Origin: Naegleria gruberi
Lineage: Eukaryota
Assembly: GCA_000004985.1 (NCBI GenBank)
Contig: GG738849.1
DNA: 64,000 nucleotides
Reading direction: 5' to 3' (one strand)
A program made the position numbers and the translations under genes. How positions within the stretch are numbered: the first letter of the stretch is position 1; the number at the start of each line of letters is the position of its first letter. Below, one piece after another: positions 5,483-63,510 of this stretch. The notes beneath the pieces were generated by a model. It was not told the DNA's origin. It did no database searches and worked only from the letters and a program-made list of their open reading frames with translations.

Positions 5483-8446
5483 TCATTTTAATTGTTTGTG
5501 ACTGGCATTACTTGTGTTCAGTTTGGAATTAATTTTGTGTAAAGATCTTGGAGAGACAGTTCCCTGTTTGATAATATTCAATTCCTCACTCTTTTTAAGA
5601 ATTTTCCTCTCAACATCTGGATCAATATCTTTAATTTCCTTTCTCTTCTTATCTATTAAAACTTTCTTAATAAATGACTCAGATAATAGCTTTGGTTTTA
5701 CAGAAAAACTGAAACTTTTTTCTGAAGCTGACAAACCAGATCTTGGTGACTCGTCGTGGAATTCATTTTCCCATTTCTCTAACAGAGTCATTTCCTTCTT
5801 TTCATTTTTCATTTTGAAATGAGTTTTCTTATTGTAAATTACTGTATTTGAGAAGAGTCCATCTCCGCCTACAGGTTTAACAAATGATTCACTTTCTTTT
5901 TTGTATAGTATATGATTGGTTATTCCTTCATCCTGTTTGGCAGTGAGAAATTCTCTTAATCTGTGTTGAGTATCGACACTACTTGGCTGATGAGGAATAC
6001 CTCCAATCAAGCCGTCCAAATACCCGCTATAGAAATGTTTGTGACGTAGGGGGACATAGTTTCGTGTTGGACGGTTGCCTGACTTGATTTTGAAGCTAAG
6101 ATTGTGATCAGAAACTTGGGTGATTAAGCAATCCACCAGATCGTGATTTTCCTTCTTTTCTCGCACAAATGAAAGGAGGAATAGTAGAAATCTTTGAATT
6201 TTTGAAAAGAGTAGATATTTCCTCATTTTCTTCTTCCTTTCCTTCTCGAAAAATTGAAGGAAAATTCTGATAAATTGGGAAAAGGATTGAATATTCGAAA
6301 AGCAAATATTATTTCCAAAATCCAAATGTTTGTGACCACTAACAATGGATCGTTCATGTCTAATCAACAATTCCTCCATTACATCTGGAGAATATTTACA
6401 AAATTCTAGTAATCCTTTGGCAGAAACTGATTTCAAATGGCTCAACAAGTTACTATTACAAAAAATTAAAATATAATGTTCTGCTACCATTTCCAAATCT
6501 AAATTACTCCAAATGTGGTCTTTGGAGAGAATATTTGTCAACATTTGGAAACAACTTATACGCTGATACAGATAGCTGTTGTAATCTTCATTACATCTGA
6601 TAACATTGAGTGCCTTACTGTACAAAATGTTCCAAAAATCAAATATTGGTGAGTTGGCTATTACATTAAAATACTTAATTATCTAAACACTATATGAGTC
6701 AACTTACAATGTTGTGCATAAGCAGCAATAAGTGCAACTACCTTTCCAGAAAGACTGAAATTAGTAGAGGTGATACTTTCAATAATTCGTTGTAGCTTTT
6801 TTTCTGACAAAATTTTCAAATTAGCATTACCAGAGCTTCCCTTATTGGCTGCAATTGTATTGTTATCATAAATATTTTCCAAATAACAACAACTTACCAC
6901 TATTTACATAGGATATAACAATATTTAGGCAGAGAATTATCTTTTTCTGATCATGATTTTGACTTTCTAGAATATCCAACATTTTGTTAATGGCTCCAGA
7001 ATGCATGAAATATAATCTAAACTCTTGTGTATCAGAAATGTCTGATAGAATATGTAAAACCCCCATAAACACATCGTATTCATCAATGTCAGTATGTGAT
7101 GTTGTTATGAAACAATTCACTGCTGCCTTTACAATCCCATACTGTTTCACAAAAATTGTGGCATATTCCTTATTTCTTAACATTCTGGCAAGGGTTTTCA
7201 CTCCCCAATATTTTGAAGTTCTATCTTTGAAAGCTAATTGTGGGGAAAGTATATCGCCACCACCTGCATCAATAATTTCCTTCTGGAATCTTTCTATGGC
7301 TGACATGTGGTACACTACTTCGTCGCAAACTCGTCTCACATCCCTTGAGATTGTTTCCTTGATAGTTGTCAATAGAGATGGTACAAAAGTTGTGGAGAAG
7401 AGGTGAGACTTTTCATAGATCCAATCCTTCTTTACAAATGATCTGAGAACAACAACTTGAATGAGCTCGCATGAATTTGATCTCAAAATCCATTCTACAA
7501 ATTCCAAGTTTTGATATCTATCAATAAGAGCTATAATCTTGTGTTGTTTGGATTCTCTCACTATACAATCAAATGTCTTGGCAATACAGTGTTTGGTTAA
7601 ATAGTCACGTTCTTGATATCTGTTCATCAAAAATACTATCATTTGATGGTTGTCCAGAAATGGATCAATCGTGTACTGATTATTAATTAAATTGAAACAA
7701 GTATTGGCAGCTGATCTTTTCGTCTCCACATGAGTAATGGAGGTGTTCATGAGTGATCTCAACATATTGACCAATTCTAATTTTTCTGCATGCATCATAC
7801 TCACAGCAATTTTCTCAAATTTTGTAAAATTACCAAATACTTTAGCTATCAAATCAACCATTGTAATATCTACTTCTCTGTATCCTTCTATATGTTTCCT
7901 CAATACATCCCCCAATAGTTCCAATCCCCAAACTTCAATCACTCTCGAAGCACAATCTCCTCTCAAATCAGACATGGCAAGAGTTTTAAAAACTTCTTGC
8001 AATAGTTCAATATTTTGTTCCTTTTTAAGGAGACACATTATTGGAAGGAGAGCTCCATCAGAAACAAATCTTCCACTGCTACAAGGATGTTGAGCTAATA
8101 ATCCAGCACATCTAACTGCCACTATCTGACATGGAACATTCATTGATGAAATAATTGGTGCCAACACTTTGAAACATTGTTTTTCCTTAACCAATTTCTG
8201 AGTATATTCCTTCTCCTTCGCCAAATTACATAATGCCATCAAACAATACTGAATAATTTGTAAATTCTCTACATTTCCAATTAGATGTAAGATGGCATCC
8301 AAGGCATCAATGACCAATAAGAGCTTTGTTTTCTGCTCCGATAAATAAAAAAACAATTTACTACTCTCCAATTTAGAATCCTCTCCTCCTTTAAACGAAA
8401 TTAAAATGTAATGATCGATGGTTCCTCCCGAAGTATTGGCTCTCAT
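5483..8446 (-). CDS. Armadillo/HEAT-like repeat protein. It is one gene of three exons, merged from three ORF-track fragments, of roughly 940 aa.
   Basis: ORFs 6866..8446, 6679..6900 and 5483..6625 join in frame through two short introns. They are GGTAAGTTG...TTGCAG near 6897-6851 and GTAAGTTGACTC...TAATAG near 6706-6655. The predicted protein consists of helical repeats. Confidence 0.45.
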
Positions 8447-9101: not shown

Positions 9102-11579
9102 ATGAACTTGGATCTATGCATACTGGCATGTTCGTCAACAGACAAAACACAACAATTAAAAATGTCAGCACTTCAACCATCTGTGGAACCCATTCGATTT
9201 ATTGGTCAGAAATCAGAGAGTGGCAATACACCAACAATAAATGTTCCATTTAAATCTATTGTTAGTCATGCAATGGCATCAACTATTGTGGATCCGTTCA
9301 GTAATAAGAATGAAGATATTCCCTTCTCTCTCTTTCTATTTGGTGGTCAGATAAATAACAAAAGAAGTGACGGAATGTTTGAGTGTCGTATTGAAAAGAT
9401 GGTTGCCTATGATGAGAAGGAAGTTCAAGATTTATTATTGGAAACAAAAGTTGCCAATAATTCAATGTTGACCATTACAGAATTTATCACTTGTGAGAAG
9501 AGGGATGGTTGTTGGCCATCTGCTCGATCTCATCATCAAATGGTTTATAGACCACCTAATGATGAACATATTGATGGAAGTTTGGTTTTATTTGGTGGAC
9601 AAGATAGTCAATTTAAAGCACTTGGAGATTTATATGAATTTGATATTCATACTAGAGAGTGGAAACAAATAGTTGAACAATCTGGTCAATTGTGGCCTAC
9701 TCGTAGACATGGACATTCAATGATATATAGACCTAGTAAGGACAGTCTTGTAATTTTGGGAGGTGTTGATACACTAAACAGAACTATTTTTGAACCATTC
9801 GAATATCTATTCCCTGAAAAAAAATGGAAAAAGATTGAATTAATAGCCAAGACTGGTAGTGCACTCTCCCTGACAAGCACTTCCTCTATTGATCCACTCT
9901 GTTTAAGGCCTCGTGCTAATCATTCTGCTGTTTTGTACAATGCTCAAAATTCAAGATTTGTTCAATTTCACACTTTGAACAATGCAGAAACTGTTGAGGA
10001 TGGAACTCAAGATGTTATGATTATATTTGGAGGTAATAATGAACAGGATTATTACAATGACATGTTTTCTATCAATCTTGGTACTTTGAACGTCGATATT
10101 ATTATGAGTTCGCATCGTATTAATGTCTATCCTCGAATGAAACATACGTGCATTATTACACGAGGTGAAAAGGCCTTGGTTATTGGTGGAAACAGAAAAG
10201 CCAGATATGATGAAATGAAAGTCGTCTCTGGAAAGACTTCAAAATCATTCTTCATGAGTGTTTTGGGAAGTATAGCACCAAAATCCAGCATTGATGCACC
10301 AATTCTCAATGGAATGGTAGCCAGAAATTTAATTACCGATTTTACTGTTAAAAATCAAGAAGCAGAACTTGATTTTAATGACATTTCACATCATACCACA
10401 TGCAGTGTTTCTCCTTCATGCTTTATCTTTGTTGGTGGTCAATTCAATAATGTTGGCGAAAAGATGACCACCAATACAAAGAATGACAAGATTTGGGTTT
10501 GCAATTTGGGTCAGTACTCTGAAACTATTGAAAAATTACAGAATGCTGAACAAAAGAAAGAATTTGGAAAGGAGTTTTACAGAAGAATGCTAGACAATTT
10601 GGGAGAGTATGGACCTATCGGATATGATTTGAGAGTTAACGTACTCAATGAAAAGACGTTCCTTGTTCACAAATTTATGCTCTCCAGATTTGAATATTTT
10701 AGAAAGCTCATCAAAGAACACTCCTCTCATCAAGTTGGAGGCATTGTTGAGATACCAATTTCTGATGCTTCAGTTGATACAATCAGTAATGTCATTGACT
10801 ACATTTATGGTATTGAACCACCAGTTTTTAGCAATCCAGAAGAAGTCCAAATCCTGACCAAATATTGTGAGAAACACTCTATGGGATCAATTGTCAAATA
10901 TACTCATGGAAAGGTTTATCTCCAAAGATCGGATTATGAATCCTACTTGCCAGAAATTCAATTACTTTTATTCTTCAAGAGAGTGTACATGGGAGAATTC
11001 CCTGAATTGCATCAATATTTCAATTCTACTGTTCGTCTAATTACTCAAGGTGAAAATGCAGAAAACACCAATATTGATATTCAACTTCCTTTGCAAATTC
11101 TTGTAAATAATGATTTTTTCCATGGATGTTTAAGAGACTTGTATATCAAACACAAACTGCACGGTCAAGATTCTCAAAATTACATTATTGAAATTGATAA
11201 TTCAATTTTCCCATTCCTCGACACTAGCTATTTTCCAATTATTGAAAGATATATTGCCACTCTCTATCAGGCACCAGTTCATATTTTTAGCTCTGAAGGA
11301 GAAGCTGTAGTTTCACAACTCATTCAATTATATTTGGTCAGTAATTTATTGAGTGATACATATATGGAAGTATTGATTATGGACTCAATCAAGAGAAGAA
11401 TTTCATTTGAAAATGCATTCCAATTGTTATGTTTTGCTTATCAACATCAATCACCTAATGAAGTTGTATTCATTTACAATGAATGTATTCGAAAGTTGAA
11501 GGAAGTTATTCCGTTGGAAGATGTGAACAAAATAATCAATTTCCTCAATCAAGAATACGCCAAACAATTTGATATTTAA
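9102..11579 (+). CDS. Kelch-repeat beta-propeller protein with a BTB/POZ domain. The true start may be the internal Met near 9163.
   Basis: There are six Kelch-like blades ('LFLFGGQIN', 'LVLFGGQDSQ', 'LVILGGVD', 'MIIFGGNNE', 'ALVIGGNRK', 'FIFVGGQFNN'), followed by a BTB-like segment ('LVHKFMLSRFEYFRKLIKEH...'). Confidence 0.6.
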   Translation: MNLDLCILACSSTDKTQQLKMSALQPSVEPIRFIGQKSESGNTPTINVPFKSIVSHAMASTIVDPFSNKNEDIPFSLFLFGGQINNKRSDGMFECRIEKMVAYDEKEVQDLLLETKVANNSMLTITEFITCEKRDGCWPSARSHHQMVYRPPNDEHIDGSLVLFGGQDSQFKALGDLYEFDIHTREWKQIVEQSGQLWPTRRHGHSMIYRPSKDSLVILGGVDTLNRTIFEPFEYLFPEKKWKKIELIAKTGSALSLTSTSSIDPLCLRPRANHSAVLYNAQNSRFVQFHTLNNAETVEDGTQDVMIIFGGNNEQDYYNDMFSINLGTLNVDIIMSSHRINVYPRMKHTCIITRGEKALVIGGNRKARYDEMKVVSGKTSKSFFMSVLGSIAPKSSIDAPILNGMVARNLITDFTVKNQEAELDFNDISHHTTCSVSPSCFIFVGGQFNNVGEKMTTNTKNDKIWVCNLGQYSETIEKLQNAEQKKEFGKEFYRRMLDNLGEYGPIGYDLRVNVLNEKTFLVHKFMLSRFEYFRKLIKEHSSHQVGGIVEIPISDASVDTISNVIDYIYGIEPPVFSNPEEVQILTKYCEKHSMGSIVKYTHGKVYLQRSDYESYLPEIQLLLFFKRVYMGEFPELHQYFNSTVRLITQGENAENTNIDIQLPLQILVNNDFFHGCLRDLYIKHKLHGQDSQNYIIEIDNSIFPFLDTSYFPIIERYIATLYQAPVHIFSSEGEAVVSQLIQLYLVSNLLSDTYMEVLIMDSIKRRISFENAFQLLCFAYQHQSPNEVVFIYNECIRKLKEVIPLEDVNKIINFLNQEYAKQFDI

Positions 11580-11702: not shown

Positions 11703-12503
11703 ATGGTAGAATCTTCATTAAGTATCACAGACGGTATTGAATGGTTGAAGCAAGAACATCAACTTATCAGACAATTATTCGATTCATGGCATAACTCTCA
11801 CATACAGCACGAACGAAATGCTATCGTTGAAAAGTTTATCAGTGAAATCTGTATCCATGCAAGTATTGAGGAAAGATATGTCTATCCATTAATTGAGGAG
11901 AAAGTTCGTGGTAGATATGGTAAACTATTATCAGATAGAAACTATCTCGATGACCAATTGAATAAGGAAATGCTTCAATTCCTAATGGACAATGTCAATG
12001 AATTGAAGAATGATAATGAAAGAAACATGTTCAATAAGGTAGTTGAGAAATTCATCACCATTGAAACTGATCACTTGAAACAAGAGGAGGATGATGTCTT
12101 TCCACTCTTGAAATTAGCACTCACATCTCAAGAGCTGAAAGAAATGTGTGACAATCTCAAGAATGGACGAACATCAGCTCCAACTCATCCTCATCCAATG
12201 AGCCCAATGAAGTTTGGTAGTAAAATCTTGCATCCAATTGCTGGAGCATTCGATAAGATTATGGATAATATGGGAATGGGTCTGAATCAACATTTAGATT
12301 TACCTCCACTTACTGAAACAATTGAAGAATCTGTCAGCACTCAAGCAAAACCATTATTGGAATTTGATACTCCAACTACAATTGGAAATGTTGAGAGTAA
12401 GCAAATGACTGATGTACCATTGACTACCTTGCAAGAACCAAAACAAAAACAACCAATCTATGTGGAGAATGAATCAATTTTCGATACTCCTTCTAATTTG
12501 TAA
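11703..12503 (+). CDS. Hemerythrin-like (HHE cation-binding) domain protein
   Basis: The N-terminal ~150 aa have spaced H/E residues in a four-helix pattern ('IEWLKQEHQLIRQLFD', 'HASIEERYVYP', 'ETDHLKQEEDDVFP') typical of hemerythrin-like domains. The C-terminal tail is low-complexity. Confidence 0.45.
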   Translation: MVESSLSITDGIEWLKQEHQLIRQLFDSWHNSHIQHERNAIVEKFISEICIHASIEERYVYPLIEEKVRGRYGKLLSDRNYLDDQLNKEMLQFLMDNVNELKNDNERNMFNKVVEKFITIETDHLKQEEDDVFPLLKLALTSQELKEMCDNLKNGRTSAPTHPHPMSPMKFGSKILHPIAGAFDKIMDNMGMGLNQHLDLPPLTETIEESVSTQAKPLLEFDTPTTIGNVESKQMTDVPLTTLQEPKQKQPIYVENESIFDTPSNL

Positions 12504-12607: not shown

Positions 12608-14380
12608 TTATTTCTTTTTGGGATTGAAAGAATGAAAAGTCAAACCTGTTGATTGATCCTTAATAGGTTGTTCTGTCTGGTCAAATGAGTGGAAAGTCCA
12701 AGAAGAGGAAGAAATACTAGCCGAATGCATGTTTGATTTCTTAGGAGATTGTTCAGCAGAATTAACGGATGGATAGTTTGCAACAATTTGAATGGGTTGT
12801 GAATTATTGTTCGTCCAAACAGGAGGAGCAGTACCACTAACAATCTGTATTGTTGTTGCAGGTTTTCTTTCCTGTTGTGTTGAATTTGCAACATTGTTAG
12901 CAGTGGTACCTGTTGCTGCTGAGACATTCTTATTGGAAAGTGATGATTGCTGACTATTCGATTGTTGTTGTTGAATTGATAGAGTATTACTTGGAACACA
13001 ACCTTCAAAATCAGAATTTGTAAAGGTTGGGAAATTGCTAGTTACAATAGATTTAGATGATTTGCTAACCTTGGCAGCTGAACCTTCTACATTATTTCCT
13101 GTGCTGTTTCTCTTTTTTGGATTTGGTGAATCGCTATTCTTCATCATTATTTGATTGGATGGCATGTAATCAATGTGTGATAATGGTTGTGCATAATTAT
13201 TGGAATAGTCAGTAATTTTGAATTGACCTAAAGGAGGTTGAGAAACGTGGAATTGATGAGTAATATTCTTAGTAGCATTAGTTTGATTATTATTATTTAC
13301 AATTTGAGTGGACGGTTGTGCCTTAATTGGTTCATAATTTGAAAATTGAATTGTTTGTGACTGATTAGTGGAAGGTTGATAGTTTGTAAATTTAGTATTG
13401 TTTGTTTTTTTCAGTGATGTTACATTTGGTTGTTGCACTGTTTGCTGTTCTGATAAATTAATTGTTGACATCATTGGTGGAGAAGATTGAATTGGTTGTT
13501 GTGGTTGTGGATTTGCAAAATTATGAAATGTAAAATTGTTTGGAATGTTTGATTCTTTTGGTTTGTTGTTCTTCTTCTTGGATTGACCTGGTTGCATGGG
13601 AGACGATTGATTGACTTGTTCAACAAAAACCAGTGGTTGATTATTTATCATTACCTGTTCCGAAATGGTAGTAGTTGTAATAGTGTTATTACCAATTGAT
13701 TGTTGTTGAATTCGTTGTTGATGTTGTGGTTCAAAGACTTGTTGAGAATCATTTCCTCCTTGTTTGTTGAAATTATGGAACACTAGAGTTGTATTCATTC
13801 CATTGTTATTATTATTGGATGACATCAATGTTGTCTTTGATTGTTGTTGTTGAATGGATATCATATTATTAGAAGATGGAAGGAGGGAATAATTATTATT
13901 CAATGATGGTGATGATGTACTAGTGGTGGTGGTTATGATTGTTTGTTGTAAATTATTGTTATCCTCTCCATTCTGATTGATGGAGGATGTATTATTTCTA
14001 TTCAGCATTGAAAGTATCACCGATTGATTGTTATTATTACTTGCACTCATCAGCATGATATTATTATTAGTCTTATTAATATTCATTTGTATCGATGGTG
14101 GTATATTCTCAAGAGTGTTGTTATCTTTTGATTGAATTGTTGATGTGATTGTTGTTGTTGGTGGTGGTGGTTGATAGTTTACATTTGAACAAGTATCATT
14201 GGTAAGGGTTTCTTCCCCTCCGCTTATTGGTAGAGTTGTTAAGTTATCATTGGTGGAAGCTTCTACATTCTGACCATCAGATGGTTCCATGACATTCCTC
14301 AGCAATGATGATGCCGATTCTGATTCTGATGCTGGCGATGGTGCAATATTATTGAATTGCTGACTTGTTGCTTGGCTCAT
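12608..14380 (-). CDS. N/Q/S/T-rich low-complexity protein with recurring (T)FH(N/S)F short motifs
   Basis: A 590-aa ORF with poly-N and poly-Q runs. The motifs 'VFHNFNK', 'FTFHNFANP', 'THQFHV', 'WTFHSFDQ' and 'LTFHSFNP' recur. Confidence 0.4.
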   Translation of the reverse strand: MSQATSQQFNNIAPSPASESESASSLLRNVMEPSDGQNVEASTNDNLTTLPISGGEETLTNDTCSNVNYQPPPPTTTITSTIQSKDNNTLENIPPSIQMNINKTNNNIMLMSASNNNNQSVILSMLNRNNTSSINQNGEDNNNLQQTIITTTTSTSSPSLNNNYSLLPSSNNMISIQQQQSKTTLMSSNNNNNGMNTTLVFHNFNKQGGNDSQQVFEPQHQQRIQQQSIGNNTITTTTISEQVMINNQPLVFVEQVNQSSPMQPGQSKKKNNKPKESNIPNNFTFHNFANPQPQQPIQSSPPMMSTINLSEQQTVQQPNVTSLKKTNNTKFTNYQPSTNQSQTIQFSNYEPIKAQPSTQIVNNNNQTNATKNITHQFHVSQPPLGQFKITDYSNNYAQPLSHIDYMPSNQIMMKNSDSPNPKKRNSTGNNVEGSAAKVSKSSKSIVTSNFPTFTNSDFEGCVPSNTLSIQQQQSNSQQSSLSNKNVSAATGTTANNVANSTQQERKPATTIQIVSGTAPPVWTNNNSQPIQIVANYPSVNSAEQSPKKSNMHSASISSSSWTFHSFDQTEQPIKDQSTGLTFHSFNPKKK

Positions 14381-14561: not shown

Positions 14562-15455
14562 CTAGAGAACGTCCTCATCATCATCAAACATGTTATTTGA
14601 ACTCATTCCCTCACCAGACATGTCTTCTTCACTGGTGGGTGAATTAATAATGTCAATATATATCTCTGATTGTTGCTCTCTTTTAACTAAAAAATCAATT
14701 TCAACCTGAGACATTAAGCCATTACCATCAAATGATAAAGTATGATTGGTGGCAAATGCTGGTTTGTTTAAATAACTTTGGAAAGTAATCTTTACCTTGA
14801 CTGTGAAATATCCCCAACCAAATCTTGTCAACTCAAATGGTGCTTTATCCACAACAACTACATTGGGTTTAAATGTTGGATGAAGTCTATATTCTACACT
14901 ATGAATGAAATCCGAAACATTCTCTCGACTGTCCATTCTGACAAACATGGTCCACTTGTGAATGTTTTGATCCGACCTAGATATTACCGTATGCTCGTTT
15001 CCAATAAAGAATGACTTACGAATTGTTTGTGTCTGTACATATTCTCTTCTCTCCTTCTCCACTTCCAATCTTCTCATCTCGTATTGTTCTTTAAAAAGCA
15101 TGGGTAGTACATTCCGAAGTGTTAAAAGAGGACGAATATTCTTTAACGTAATCAGTGAATTATTACCATCACTGAATGGGGCTCTACAACAGGGACATGC
15201 ATTCATAGAACCATTACTAGCTAATAATCTTTCAATGCAAAATTTACAAAAGGTGTGACCACAGTGGAATCCTACAGGTTCGTATAATAAATTTAAACAG
15301 AGTGGACATTCAAAATCTGATATTACCGGATTACTGTTGTTGTTGTTATTACTACTATTTATCGGAGTGGTGTTATTTCCTGTGCTTGTTTGTTGACGTG
15401 ATGTGGTTGTTGTTGTTAATGGATTCAGACTGTTGTTATTATTATTGATAAACAT
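14562..15455 (-). CDS. RING (C3HC4) finger fused to a C-terminal YEATS domain
   Basis: 'CPLCLNLLYEPVGFHCGHTFCKFCIERL...CPCCR' is a canonical RING. 'HKWTMFVRMD...VEYRLHPTFKPNVVVVDKAPFELTRFGWGYFTVKVKITF' matches the YEATS core (H-W-T-V, LH.SF, PFE.TE.GWGEF.I.I.IFF). Confidence 0.65.
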   Translation of the reverse strand: MFINNNNNSLNPLTTTTTSRQQTSTGNNTTPINSSNNNNNSNPVISDFECPLCLNLLYEPVGFHCGHTFCKFCIERLLASNGSMNACPCCRAPFSDGNNSLITLKNIRPLLTLRNVLPMLFKEQYEMRRLEVEKERREYVQTQTIRKSFFIGNEHTVISRSDQNIHKWTMFVRMDSRENVSDFIHSVEYRLHPTFKPNVVVVDKAPFELTRFGWGYFTVKVKITFQSYLNKPAFATNHTLSFDGNGLMSQVEIDFLVKREQQSEIYIDIINSPTSEEDMSGEGMSSNNMFDDDEDVL

Positions 15456-16055: not shown

Positions 16056-18456
16056 ATGCTTCCACAACAAGGAATGACTTCAGGTACATCTGCTTCATCC
16101 TCTATCAGTGGTACTGAGCACGTTAATTTTCAGGAAATTGTTTCATCACTCCATAATGAAAATGCTATAGAATCAGCCCTTTACAAGGATGCTTCCAATG
16201 TTATCACTGATAGATTGGAGTTTGGCATTACTGTTGATGCTATTCTTGTTAAACCTAATGTTGAAGGAAGTAATGATACCGTTGTTGAAAAGATTTGCAA
16301 TGCTGTCAATGAAAATGGTGTTTCTATGCTCAGATCAGCTCTCGGAACAACAGTCATTGATCAAGGTACTATTAGAGTTGTTATGCACAATGGTCGTGTT
16401 GAAGTTTGTGGACCAGGTAAGTTTTATTGTGGTTGTGATGAAATTTTTAACACATACTTTTGGATATTCTTCCAATATCATGTTGTGATGATCATTTCTA
16501 CCATTATAATTTACATTGAAATAATAACAGGAAGATACATGAGAATTAATCCAAGAGCTCACTGGAGTGACACCTACAATTTGGAAAATGATGTTATTGT
16601 TCACGAAACTTTGAAAATTATTCGTATAAGAAAGGGTTATTATGGCTTGGCTAATTTGAACGGACAACCTTTAATTCTCGGAGAGGGTTTGCACGTTAGA
16701 AATACCAGATTATTCTCTTTTAAGGAAGCTAAGGAAATTAACCAAGAAAGAATTGAACATGGTACCATTAATATTTTGAGAATTCCTCAAGGGTACTATG
16801 GTAAGGTTATTGAGAATAACATTCCTAAATTGTTGAAGGCAGGTAATTATGTCGTTGATAGTGCTCTCTTCAGTTATCATGGTTTAGTTTCAATTAACGA
16901 AACTCATATCAAGCACTCTACCATTCAAATTATCAGAATTCCAAAGAGTTCTATTGGTTTAGTCACTGTTGGAACCAAGCCTTCATTATTGCAAGAAGGA
17001 TTGTATATTTTCAATGATCAAAATGTTACTTATAATGGAATGAAGGATATTACAGACTCAGTAATTAGACATCCTCCAATTACTAGATTTAGAGTTACTT
17101 TGGGTGAGTTGGCTCTCTGTTGGTACAAGAGTGTCCCTGTCTTTATTTCTGGTGAGTAGTTTTTCTTGATTGTTATGATGATTTTAACACTTTTCAATCC
17201 AGAACCTCAAGTTTATGAAGTTAACAGTACTGACTTTTTATTCGAAAAGTGTGTACCTGTGAAAACCAAGACTATTATTTTGGGTTCATCAATGAGAATT
17301 ATTGTTAATGAAGGTGAAGTTTGTGTTACTTACAAACGAGGTAAACTGGATATTCTTAATCCAGGTACCTTTGTTTTCACTAATGAATTGGATCGTACAT
17401 TCGAATCATACATGTCAACTAGATTAATGTCCATTCCTTTGATTGAAGATGTTTCCAAGGAAACCTTCTTGAGATGTGACACTCGTGACTTTGTTGAAGT
17501 TGGTATTAGAGCTGCTGTTTCATTTAGAATTTCTGATCCAAAATTGACTTTAACTATTGGTAAGTAGTAGTATTTTTGAAAACAGTTCTTATATCTTCTC
17601 AGTTGGTAATGAAGCTCAAACCATCAAATTAATTAAGGATCAAAGTATTGCTGCTTTGCAAGCCATTGTTAGATCTACTGCATTGAATCAATTGGCTCAA
17701 AACAAGACCATTCCAGCCTCTGAACTTAAAGAACAAAATACTCAAACAAGTGATCACAGTGATCCTAATGTTTCTTCAAATCCATCAGCTCCACAATTCT
17801 TTGAAAACCTTCACGATGAATTCATTTCAAAACTCCATGACACCTTCAAGAAGAGTTATGGTATTGAAATTGATAATATCCGTATTGAAGATTTCCAAAT
17901 TATAAATCAAGAATTGGCAACAAACATTTCCAAACAAGCCATCATTACTGCTGAAACCAGTACCAAATTGGCCAACTTGGAAGCTCAAAGAGAAATTGAA
18001 TTGGCTGGTCAAGAAAGATTGAATTCTATCAACTCTATCAAGGCTACTGCTGAAGCTTTCAAATTAAAGACTGAAACTGAAGCCAAGAATAATGCTACCA
18101 TTATTGAAGCTGAAACTAAGGCCATTGAAATCAAGACACTTGCCAAGGCCAGAGCTGAAGCTCTCACTATTGAAGCAGAAGCTGAAGCCAAAGCTATTGA
18201 AATTAAGGCTCTTGCTGAAAAGAAGAGAGCTGAATATTTGAGTTCAACTGAATTTGGTAAACAAGAAGCTCTCTTGACAAAACACCACGACATGGTTGTT
18301 CAAGCCATGAAGAGTGTTTCTCAAGTTGTTTACCTTCCTAGTGATGCAAATATGGGTTGCTTGCCTTTGCAAATGTTTGGCATGCAAGGTGGAATTCCTA
18401 ATTTCGATAGTATTACTAAGGATGCTGGCAGAAGTAATGGTAGAAAAAAAGACTAA
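16056..18456 (+). CDS. SPFH-superfamily protein, flotillin/vacuolin/major-vault-protein-like, in four exons. It has internal ~50-aa beta repeats and an EA-rich C-terminal helix.
   Basis: Exon 1 is 16056..16416 (donor G|GTAAGT). Exon 2 is 16531..17159 (acceptor AACAG, donor G|GTGAGT). Exon 3 is 17211..17559 (donor G|GTAAGT). Exon 4 is 17603..18456. The repeats are 'IIRIRKGYYGL', 'ILRIPQGYYGKV' and 'IIRIPKSSIGLV'. The C-terminus, 'EAEAEAKAIEIKALAEKKRAEY', is like the flotillin domain or the MVP cap helix. Confidence 0.55.
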
Positions 18457-60921: not shown

Positions 60922-61288
60922 GTTTTATACACTTTCATACAATAGAGTGATATTGAAATGTACCCTTTGATATTTCTGGATGGGTAGTATGATTTAGTGA
61001 TGATTCCGACAATAAAAATCATATATTGTTCATATAATTATCAAGATATTGTATAATTTATTAAATATAAAGTGGGTAATATTGAATATTCTTTGTAGGA
61101 GCGGAAGCACTTATTCTTGTCAGTTGGAGTCAGTATTGTATTAAGGTTGGGTTTGGTTATCGTTTCGTACTCATTGGATCTTCATTATTATTGAAATACA
61201 TAATCAATGATATACATCATTAAATAGGTTACAATCTCAGCTATCCAGTGGGCTATAGATTGTGTATAGTTTCTTATCTAATTATTGA

Positions 61289-62867
61289 NNNNNNNNNNNN
61301 NNNNNNNNNNNNNNNNNNNNNNNNNNNNNNNNNNNNNNNNNNNNNNNNNNNNNNNNNNNNNNNNNNNNNNNNNNNNNNNNNNNNNNNNNNNNNNNNNNNN
61401 NNNNNNNNNNNNNNNNNNNNNNNNNNNNNNNNNNNNNNNNNNNNNNNNNNNNNNNNNNNNNNNNNNNNNNNNNNNNNNNNNNNNNNNNNNNNNNNNNNNN
61501 NNNNNNNNNNNNNNNNNNNNNNNNNNNNNNNNNNNNNNNNNNNNNNNNNNNNNNNNNNNNNNNNNNNNNNNNNNNNNNNNNNNNNNNNNNNNNNNNNNNN
61601 NNNNNNNNNNNNNNNNNNNNNNNNNNNNNNNNNNNNNNNNNNNNNNNNNNNNNNNNNNNNNNNNNNNNNNNNNNNNNNNNNNNNNNNNNNNNNNNNNNNN
61701 NNNNNNNNNNNNNNNNNNNNNNNNNNNNNNNNNNNNNNNNNNNNNNNNNNNNNNNNNNNNNNNNNNNNNNNNNNNNNNNNNNNNNNNNNNNNNNNNNNNN
61801 NNNNNNNNNNNNNNNNNNNNNNNNNNNNNNNNNNNNNNNNNNNNNNNNNNNNNNNNNNNNNNNNNNNNNNNNNNNNNNNNNNNNNNNNNNNNNNNNNNNN
61901 NNNNNNNNNNNNNNNNNNNNNNNNNNNNNNNNNNNNNNNNNNNNNNNNNNNNNNNNNNNNNNNNNNNNNNNNNNNNNNNNNNNNNNNNNNNNNNNNNNNN
62001 NNNNNNNNNNNNNNNNNNNNNNNNNNNNNNNNNNNNNNNNNNNNNNNNNNNNNNNNNNNNNNNNNNNNNNNNNNNNNNNNNNNNNNNNNNNNNNNNNNNN
62101 NNNNNNNNNNNNNNNNNNNNNNNNNNNNNNNNNNNNNNNNNNNNNNNNNNNNNNNNNNNNNNNNNNNNNNNNNNNNNNNNNNNNNNNNNNNNNNNNNNNN
62201 NNNNNNNNNNNNNNNNNNNNNNNNNNNNNNNNNNNNNNNNNNNNNNNNNNNNNNNNNNNNNNNNNNNNNNNNNNNNNNNNNNNNNNNNNNNNNNNNNNNN
62301 NNNNNNNNNNNNNNNNNNNNNNNNNNNNNNNNNNNNNNNNNNNNNNNNNNNNNNNNNNNNNNNNNNNNNNNNNNNNNNNNNNNNNNNNNNNNNNNNNNNN
62401 NNNNNNNNNNNNNNNNNNNNNNNNNNNNNNNNNNNNNNNNNNNNNNNNNNNNNNNNNNNNNNNNNNNNNNNNNNNNNNNNNNNNNNNNNNNNNNNNNNNN
62501 NNNNNNNNNNNNNNNNNNNNNNNNNNNNNNNNNNNNNNNNNNNNNNNNNNNNNNNNNNNNNNNNNNNNNNNNNNNNNNNNNNNNNNNNNNNNNNNNNNNN
62601 NNNNNNNNNNNNNNNNNNNNNNNNNNNNNNNNNNNNNNNNNNNNNNNNNNNNNNNNNNNNNNNNNNNNNNNNNNNNNNNNNNNNNNNNNNNNNNNNNNNN
62701 NNNNNNNNNNNNNNNNNNNNNNNNNNNNNNNNNNNNNNNNNNNNNNNNNNNNNNNNNNNNNNNNNNNNNNNNNNNNNNNNNNNNNNNNNNNNNNNNNNNN
62801 NNNNNNNNNNNNNNNNNNNNNNNNNNNNNNNNNNNNNNNNNNNNNNNNNNNNNNNNNNNNNNNNNNN
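61289..62867. other. Assembly gap, a run of 1579 N
   Basis: The N run is contiguous. ORF-track entries across it, translated as X, are artefacts. Confidence 0.95.
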
Positions 62868-63510
62868 TACTCATCGAATGGAGCATGTTCTTATGTATAT
62901 TGTTGGTTGAAGTGATGTATTTGATAGAGTAGGTCTGACTTGTCTTTCCTTAATCAACTTTGTAAAGTCAACATTTACATTCCCATGGTACCATTTCTGA
63001 TTACTAGGACATGAAATTAAATTCTATATCATTATAGATCATCTACATTATGATGGTAAAGTTTCAATAGGTGGTCCTTTTTCCAGATTTCCACATATTC
63101 ATACAAGTTCATACAAGTTGACCCTATGATGGTTGAGGGAAGAAATCTTTAAATATGAAAGTTAAAATAAATTTGATATTCGATGTTTACTCATCAAATG
63201 GAACATTTTCATGTCAGGATTCAATATGTTTTCATGAGAAACTCAAAAGTTATTGTTGACCTATTGTACCTCACAACTTCCCTTTTCACTTGATACTATA
63301 CTTTTATACCTACAGACATGAACTATTGAAATTTCATATGAAAGTGATTATAAATGTTGTTAATGATGATATAAACTATATAATCTCATTAAAGGATTTT
63401 GAAATTATCATTCTTCCTATGGTTTCATTTTATAATTTTTAATCTGACATTATTTACAAAGTTAATATTTTATAAATTGAAAAACTAAATATAATACATT
63501 GTTCTACTCA
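62868..63510. repeat. Degenerate subtelomeric repeat with a period of about 320 bp, covering at least two units
   Basis: 'tactcatcgaatggagcatgttcttatgtat' (62868..) matches 'tactcatcaaatggaacattttcatgtcagg' (63189..) imperfectly. A third partial copy, 'tactcatcatttacaatcgaatg', lies near 63503. Confidence 0.4.

Follow-up and report, generated by a model that had tools for sequence, protein, structure and literature searches.

RING-YEATS proteins, a widespread eukaryotic family with the predicted anatomy of an acyl-lysine-directed ubiquitin ligase, viewed from a single-exon gene of Naegleria gruberi

In the 64,000-nucleotide stretch of Naegleria gruberi DNA that is considered here (contig GG738849.1 of assembly GCA_000004985.1; hereafter the window), an open reading frame (ORF) of 297 codons encodes a protein in which a RING finger of the C3HC4 type is followed by a YEATS domain. 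We regard this ORF as a genuine single-exon gene of a conserved RING-linker-YEATS family, whose products would relay lysine acylation to ubiquitination as acyl-lysine-directed RING E3 ubiquitin ligases. The probability that we attach to this reading as a whole is about 0.6; our confidence is high for the anatomy of the protein and moderate for its mechanism, since the binding of acyl-lysine, the E3 activity, the substrates (histones or other chromatin proteins) and a nuclear location are all predicted from sequence. A first-pass annotation of the window had singled out the ORF as a canonical RING joined to a YEATS core and had proposed that it specifies a reader-coupled ubiquitin ligase. We know of no characterised YEATS protein that carries a RING, and to our knowledge those that have been studied all lack catalytic activity and serve as subunits by which acetyltransferase, remodelling or elongation complexes are recruited.

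In the program-made ORF list the frame runs from ATG to stop at 14562..15455 on the minus strand, a strand left unstated in the first-pass annotation, and comprises 297 codons plus the stop in a single exon. Because a stop codon lies in frame two codons before the ATG, the ORF has no 5' extension unless an intron is invoked, and the G+C content of the gene (0.35) is so close to that of the window (0.33) that the gene can be considered native in composition. A homology search matched the protein at 100% identity and 100% coverage to an uncharacterized N. gruberi predicted protein (NAEGRDRAFT_63139, XP_002681875.1, EFC49131.1, UniProt D2V2W3), for which the deposited gene model is the plain ORF. 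The gene is thus heterolobosean (Discoba), and an origin from a dictyostelid or another amoebozoan is rejected. As the annotation had claimed, the RING comes first and no stop intervenes between the domains. Five Pfam RING models, which jointly span aa 47-95, score above their cut-offs (given in brackets after the bit scores): zf-C3HC4 at 29.9 (21), zf-RING_UBOX at 33.7 (25.2), zf-C3HC4_2 at 32.9 (27), zf-C3HC4_3 at 30.4 (27) and zf-C3HC4_4 at 32.9 (30). Further on, the Pfam YEATS model PF03366 is called at aa 164-243, inside the interval of roughly residues 150-250 where it had been expected, with 85.1 bits (cut-off 22; E=3.2e-24) and over profile positions 2-79 of 80. Sequence matches in the PDB divide in the same manner, the N-terminal half finding the RINGs of BRCA1, TRIM21, RNF125, RNF168 and TRAF6 and the C-terminal half finding YEATS2 (1.6e-15), Yaf9 and GAS41; none of the YEATS proteins in the PDB carries a RING, in keeping with the annotation's statement that the known ones lack it. 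The Pfam scan of the 297-aa protein returned no B-box, coiled-coil, PHD, bromodomain, AHD or ET family (down to E<=1 for B-box, PHD and bromodomain) and no DNA- or nucleosome-binding module.

The protein was modelled with AlphaFold2 from a family alignment of 18 sequences. The model has a mean pLDDT (predicted local distance difference test) of 80, exceeds 90 for most of aa 45-250 and reaches a pTM (predicted template modelling score) of 0.60. Its layout is a disordered segment (aa 1-39), the RING, two helices (111-120 and 122-140), a beta-sandwich (142-258), a further helix (259-270) and a disordered acidic tail, with no more than about 46 residues between the RING and the YEATS fold. Comparison of the confidently modelled parts with known structures confirms both the RING fold and the immunoglobulin-like sandwich of the YEATS domain, and the structural neighbours of the RING include the nucleosome-directed E3s RNF168, RING1B/PCGF and UHRF1.

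The annotation's view that this architecture is unusual stands to the extent that no characterised RING-YEATS protein is known; it is by no means unique, being shared by a sizeable unnamed family in public databases. When 1.84 billion cluster representatives were searched exhaustively with a family profile, 202 were recovered at E<=1e-30, and most of the 150 matches listed span the profile continuously from RING through YEATS. The N. gruberi protein, one of the 18 sequences from which the profile was built, scores 351 bits against it and carries every invariant column of the 18-member alignment, and all 18 aligned relatives also match Pfam YEATS. It displays, in order, the traits by which the family can be recognised, namely a C3HC4 RING, a helical linker with an invariant Arg (R128 in the 18-member alignment) and a YEATS domain with the motifs IGN.H, LHPTF and GWGxF. 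RING precedes YEATS in 160/160 retrieved proteins that have both motifs, and among family proteins the last Cys of the RING and the His of the pocket are separated by a median of 93 aa (range 61-144).

The pocket of the YEATS domain is the part of the protein that most directly suggests a reader. In YEATS2, crotonyl-lysine is clamped by Y262 and W282 and hydrogen-bonded via S261 and W282; substitutions H259A, S261A, Y262A, W282A and F285A weaken crotonyl-lysine binding, and G283A abolishes it (PMC4856769). The cage of Taf14 is formed by T61, F62 and W81 together with H59 (PMC4573853). In the N. gruberi protein H192, T194 and F195 align with H259, S261 and Y262 of YEATS2 and with H59, T61 and F62 of Taf14, and W214, G215 and F217 align with W282, G283 and F285 of YEATS2, W214 being also the equivalent of Taf14 W81. 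All six residues are invariant or nearly so both in the 18-member alignment and in a YEATS-only alignment, and across the retrieved proteins the motif HPTF is found in 201/217 pockets and GWGxF in 216/217. To judge from this conservation the pocket is under strong selection, and by its aligned residues it is of the Taf14/YEATS2 type (Thr/Ser plus Trp), threonine-lined as in Taf14; pockets of this type have been associated with preferential binding of crotonyl-lysine (PMC4856769, PMC6212594). In one copy from Rotaria sordida (P0015) GWG is replaced by GRG, with loss of the cage Trp of the W214 column; the genome is a degenerate tetraploid, and this paralogue may be decaying or may have acquired a new function.

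The RING is likewise well preserved. All eight zinc ligands (C50, C53, C65, H67, C70, C73, C87 and C90) are present and invariant in the family alignment, at spacings that conform to the cross-brace pattern C-x2-C-x(9-39)-C-x-H-x2-C-x2-C-x(4-48)-C-x2-C, and the canonical C3HC4 finger that had been called from the ORF is thus upheld by ligands and Pfam models alike. In RING E3s such as RNF4, BIRC7, TRIM25 and BRCA1, a hydrophobic residue after the first Cys and a Pro after the seventh ligand touch the E2 ubiquitin-conjugating enzyme, and a linchpin Arg or Lys after the last RING Cys stabilises the closed conformation of the E2~ubiquitin conjugate. The corresponding residues here are L52, P88 and R91, which in a gapless alignment pair with I26, P62 and K65 of BRCA1. 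Among 160 family proteins the E2-contact hydrophobic residue is kept in 159, the Pro in 152 and an Arg or Lys at the linchpin position in 158, a pattern that favours a RING that is catalytically competent rather than purely structural.

If these parts work as their sequences suggest, three steps would follow one another. The YEATS beta-sandwich would dock on an acylated lysine of the acetyl or crotonyl type, most likely in the tail of histone H3, with the acyl group sandwiched by F195 and W214 and the acyl-amide hydrogen-bonded by T194 and the backbone of W214. The BRCA1/TRIM-like C3HC4 RING, kept at a constrained distance by the conserved helical linker, would then recruit E2~ubiquitin through L52 and P88, with R91 as linchpin. 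Ubiquitin would finally be passed to lysines of the same nucleosome, of a neighbouring chromatin protein or of the ligase itself, and the outcome would be a direct relay from acylation to ubiquitination in one small polypeptide. Since the eukaryotic YEATS domains that have been characterised are all readers of histone acylation, the likeliest ligand is a histone tail, and a "reader-coupled ubiquitin ligase", the term used in the first-pass annotation, remains the most economical description because the family conserves both the pocket and the residues that bind the E2; the activities that it implies are predicted ones.

Several considerations weigh against this reading. Our literature search returned no biochemical or localisation data for any RING-YEATS member, and no classical nuclear localisation signal was obvious in the protein, for which no formal search was made. 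The relative placement of the RING and the YEATS domain is uncertain given the pTM of 0.60. The protein may not act alone, since the RING of BRCA1, its closest by sequence, needs a heterodimeric partner for full activity, and RING-YEATS proteins, too, may need dimerisation or a partner. PDB entries 9x8u and 9x8s, both among our matches, contain GAS41 with an acetylated peptide of the yellow fever virus capsid, i.e., a non-histone acetyl-lysine read by a YEATS domain. The Asp with which AF9 and Taf14 grip H3R8 appears not to be conserved, an alignment by eye, weak in itself, placing H238/T239 at this position, and histone-site specificity is therefore not readable from the sequence. In AF9 the residue in question is D103. 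That of Taf14 is D104 (PMC4573853).

The last two of these points also bear on the alternative that survives best, one that we hold to be unlikely: that the chemistry is the same and the targets are acylated non-histone proteins, so that the enzyme would be an "acyl-degron" E3 for turnover or signalling in the cytosol or nucleus. The GAS41 complexes supply a precedent for such a ligand, the Pfam scan detected neither a DNA- or nucleosome-binding module nor a partner-docking domain (AHD, ET or coiled coil), the H3R8-gripping Asp is missing from the by-eye alignment, and TRIM-like RINGs usually act on non-histone substrates. On the other side of the balance, every characterised eukaryotic YEATS protein is chromatin-associated (PMC4573853, PMC4856769), and nucleosome-directed ligases are found among the structural neighbours of the RING, as noted above. 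We consider it quite unlikely that the RING is instead a dimerisation or partner-binding module, comparable to those of BARD1 or BMI1/PCGF, in a reader or adaptor subunit that brings a separate ligase or complex to acylated lysines; RING partners with weak or no activity tend to degenerate at the E2-contact and linchpin positions, which in this family are retained almost without exception. Very improbable, in our estimation, is a YEATS fold that does not read acyl-lysine at all and serves as a generic protein- or DNA-binding surface, or as the immunoglobulin-like substrate-recognition domain of an ordinary RING E3. Some YEATS domains do also bind DNA (PMC6212594), and the Rotaria sordida paralogue with GRG has evidently lost the cage Trp, but the near-absolute conservation of cage and hydrogen-bonding residues in the family at large is hard to explain without selection on the pocket.

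Evidence on whether the two halves form one transcription unit comes from relatives of the N. gruberi gene. Its N. lovaniensis orthologue is one uninterrupted 852-nt ORF with 65% identity over 217 aa; the RING-YEATS gene alone matches between the two Naegleria loci within +/-8 kb, with no synteny. TransDecoder-complete ORFs with both domains occur in transcriptomes, i.e., P0037 (TSA GILK01004171) and the Amoeba proteus Trinity isoform P0266. Close metagenomic relatives are located on genomic MEGAHIT contigs. The transcriptome ORFs of relatives, the conserved linker with R128 and the uniform domain order thus provide strong, though indirect, support for co-transcription of RING and YEATS in N. 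gruberi. Amoeba proteus has several Trinity isoforms (P0262, P0266 and P0267), of which P0262 diverges after PPFEV and is without the second pocket loop, possibly through intron retention; contamination of this transcriptome by prey organisms is possible. Merged gene models do exist in the family, as in Edaphochlamys (P0083, histone H4 plus RING-YEATS) and Baudoinia (P0230, with extra ADH domains), but with a continuous frame, no stop between domains, an invariant linker Arg, the same architecture in every two-domain relative from at least six lineages, the single ORF of N. lovaniensis and complete ORFs from transcriptomes, the notion that the fusion is an artefact (chance read-through of adjacent genes, a mistake in the assembly or the gene model, or a pseudogene in decay) is effectively refuted. 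A natural histone H4-RING-YEATS fusion in Edaphochlamys debaryana, as the deposited protein P0083 ("Histone H4") would have it, was rejected, the genomic H4 ORF ending normally at YGFGG-stop, so that the deposited model merges a complete H4 gene with the RING-YEATS gene downstream of it. In that genome (JAEHOE010000001.1; L005, 2501-5671) the RING-YEATS gene adjoins a divergent H3/H4 pair, with a histone-deacetylase gene ~2 kb further; its closeness to histone genes is probably coincidental.

The homology search found RING plus YEATS Pfam content in N. lovaniensis, Willaertia magna and Acrasis kona, in the bdelloid rotifers Adineta and Rotaria, in Allomyces, in one dothideomycete and in many metagenomic proteins. 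A profile search of a named database, together with cluster look-ups, placed members in the Blastocladiomycota (three Allomyces species, Paraphysoderma and Sorochytrium). Members from the Pezizomycotina are Zymoseptoria tritici, Aureobasidium, Hortaea, Baudoinia, Pseudocercospora, Zasmidium, Lasiodiplodia, Microdochium, Monosporascus, Pestalotiopsis and Knufia, and others come from Saitoella, from the green algae Micractinium, Parachlorella and Edaphochlamys, and from the Amoeba proteus transcriptome. Named members thus come from six lineages or more. Every family member that was found is eukaryotic, the bdelloid rotifers are the sole animals among the named matches, and no dictyostelid, vertebrate, land-plant or budding-yeast protein is among them. 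Of the groups in which the first-pass annotation had proposed to look for orthologues, the Amoebozoa are represented by the Amoeba proteus transcriptome, with the reservation about prey organisms made above, and the dictyostelids by none of the named matches.

A neighbour-joining tree, which is rough and gives no clear deep branching, groups the sequences by taxon, the Ascomycota, the Blastocladiomycota, most of the green algae, the rotifers and the Heterolobosea each forming a clade, a picture that fits mainly vertical descent with losses. The size of the family, the many lineages that it occupies and the agreement of its clades with taxonomy argue for long-term selection on the combined RING-YEATS architecture, as far as sequences can tell. 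Spread mediated by giant viruses was considered as a source of the patchy distribution and is unsupported, a viral structure library having returned only generic RING matches and a scan of viral contigs no relatives. The rotifer gene (Adineta vaga CP075497.1; L004, 3001-3729) has a spliceosomal intron of ~54 nt after ...TRIGW, inside the GWG pocket motif, which marks it as a resident eukaryotic gene and identifies the "truncated" rotifer database proteins of 171-173 aa (P0016-P0020) as ORF calls on the first exon.

Tandem RING-YEATS-YEATS variants (P0035, P0038, P0040, P0185 and P0187) suggest multivalent reading, and an arrangement of two YEATS domains behind one RING fits a multivalent reader that feeds one catalytic module. 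A contig from Logan accession SRR22100206 (L002, 16-1074) has one RING and two YEATS domains, both with HPTF and GWG pockets intact, as they also are in P0038, P0040, P0185 and P0187; it is 1169 nt long, transcript-like, and ends in an Illumina adapter with no poly(A). In several members from Heterolobosea, fungi and metagenomes the C-termini align in acidic runs of D/E, but a run of at least four D/E is present in only 46/160 and is for that reason not a core feature. Proteins of 450-480 aa from Aspergillus, Arachnomyces and Histoplasma (P0032-P0034) match over the RING and post-RING segment at E=3e-5 to 6e-4 and have no YEATS; these eurotiomycete proteins may be related ligases with another C-terminal module.

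In Table 1, we have listed the features of the N. gruberi gene in window coordinates. The flanking ORFs, at 12608-14380 on the minus strand (590 aa, N/Q/S/T-rich) and at 16056-17159 on the plus strand, are without a Pfam match. Further away lie genes for an ARM-repeat (ARMC5-like) protein (6866-8446, minus), a Kelch-repeat plus BTB protein that is a possible Cullin-3 adaptor (9102-11579, plus) and a hemerythrin-domain protein (11703-12503, plus). An assembly gap, a run of 1579 N at 61289-62867, accounts for the dip in G+C to 0.05-0.08 in the composition profile and the spurious long ORFs at 61248-62915.

Table 1. Features of the RING-YEATS gene of N. gruberi (window coordinates; aa, residues of the 297-aa protein)
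Feature	Position	Strand	Basis
Complete single-exon gene	14562..15455	-	ORF list; 100% identity to NAEGRDRAFT_63139
aa 1-44, N/T/S-rich low-complexity N-terminus, predicted disordered, not conserved	15324..15455	-	pLDDT ~41 for aa 1-39; unalignable among members
aa 47-95, C3HC4 RING finger	15171..15317	-	Pfam RING models
aa 96-141, post-RING segment (TRIM21-like LKNIRP..L) and two linker helices (111-120, 122-140)	15033..15170	-	AlphaFold2 helices, pLDDT 82-97
aa 142-258, YEATS immunoglobulin-like beta-sandwich	14682..15032	-	Model; Pfam core aa 164-243 = 14727-14966
aa 191-195, LHPTF, first pocket loop	14871..14885	-	YEATS2 alignment; codons verified by eye and script
aa 213-217, GWGYF, second pocket loop	14805..14819	-	Alignment to YEATS2 and Taf14
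aa 259-297, helix 259-270 then disordered tail	14565..14681	-	pLDDT 48-61 past aa 260
aa 290-297, acidic tail motif F-DDDED-VL	DDDED = 14571-14585	-	Sequence

In a search of the full-text literature no paper came up that describes a RING-YEATS protein or cites the accessions of this gene, with the proviso that a passing mention in subscription journals or in surveys of chromatin evolution (Grau-Bove et al.) is possible. RING-YEATS proteins are thus a widespread and apparently unstudied family, whose sequences are already public with both Pfam annotations and with no family name. Relatives go by automatic and inconsistent names such as RING-type domain-containing protein, Protein AF-9 homolog, YEATS domain-containing protein 2 and transcription initiation factor IIF auxiliary subunit, and recognition of the family corrects those that are misleading (the AF-9, YEATS2 and TFIIF labels). 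A YEATS domain fused to a competent-looking ligase would add ubiquitination to the outputs of acyl-lysine reading, and would offer a compact natural system for the study of crosstalk between acylation and ubiquitin. More tentatively, and with rather less than even confidence, we suggest that the RING-YEATS proteins form an ancient class of eukaryotic chromatin enzymes, lost many times over, that directly convert histone acylation to local ubiquitination in a single polypeptide of ~220-300 aa, and that the family was lost from model animals, plants and yeasts. If this were true, no enzyme with a YEATS domain would have been known before them, they would constitute a minimal read-write module complete in itself, and their loss from the model organisms would explain why the family escaped study. 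Some of the organisms that have the family (Zymoseptoria tritici, Aureobasidium, Allomyces, Naegleria and Adineta vaga) can be worked with experimentally, at least in part, and members of ~220 aa should express easily. Since it is well established that RINGs can be fused to readers of the bromodomain, PHD or Tudor type, a YEATS-containing E3 would be an extension and not a new principle; for the chromatin specialist it would be noteworthy and easily tested, within the familiar theme of domain shuffling between readers and RINGs.

Comparison with known systems shows how each half of the protein has close counterparts in proteins that are otherwise built differently. By sequence the closest RING is that of BRCA1 (E=1.8e-11), with a gapless alignment of 48 residues (BRCA1 21-68) at ~50% identity that includes the FCKFC motif. 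BRCA1 is a nucleosome-directed (H2A) E3; it is a protein of 1863 aa with BRCT repeats, and its partner BARD1 reads H4K20me0, none of which has an equivalent in the N. gruberi protein. The canonical YEATS readers (YEATS2, Yaf9/GAS41, AF9/ENL, Taf14 and Sas5) share with the family the domain, its fold and the pocket residues, but they have the YEATS domain at the N-terminus, together with docking modules (AHD, ET or coiled coil), and are non-catalytic subunits of histone acetyltransferase, remodeller and elongation complexes, whereas the YEATS domain of the N. gruberi protein lies C-terminal to the RING and no docking module was found. A YEATS-only profile of the family scores 81 bits against YEATS2, 77 against Yaf9, 75 against plant TAF14b, 71 against GAS41, ~60 against AF9/ENL, 46 against Taf14 and 36 against Sas5. 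Assignment of the domain to one canonical subfamily was rejected, the scores being nearly tied among YEATS2, Yaf9 and plant TAF14b. With no clear affinity of the profile for one subfamily, the YEATS domain of these proteins is best seen as a separate clade, and the different domain order, the lack of AHD and ET and the near-equal scores place the N. gruberi protein outside the canonical subfamilies. The prokaryotic YEATS model (pYEATS, PF20305) overlaps aa 168-226 at 47.6 bits, compared with 85.1 for the eukaryotic model.

In function, the nearest parallels are with ligases that carry other readers. UHRF1 and UHRF2 (ORTH/VIM in plants) also combine readers and a RING in one protein, but they read by means of tandem Tudor, PHD and SRA domains (for H3K9me3, unmodified H3R2 and hemimethylated DNA), their RING is C-terminal and they have no YEATS domain. 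The TIF1 group of TRIM proteins (TRIM24, TRIM28, TRIM33 and TRIM66) has an N-terminal C3HC4 RING and an acyl- or acetyl-lysine reader in one polypeptide, and TIF1 proteins couple the reading of chromatin marks to ubiquitin or SUMO ligase activity. The likeness extends to the RING itself, which resembles those of TRIM proteins down to the post-RING LKNxRP helix; the alignment to TRIM21 continues past the RING through LKNxRP...L to aa ~126. The TIF1 reader, however, is a PHD-bromodomain at the C-terminus, which forms a helical bundle and shares no homology with YEATS, and TIF1 proteins have B-boxes and a long coiled coil, none of which was detected in the far smaller RING-YEATS protein. The N. 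gruberi protein thus has neither the RBCC arrangement nor the PHD-bromodomain by which TRIM/TIF1 proteins are defined, and it would work like a TIF1 protein while belonging to a family of its own.

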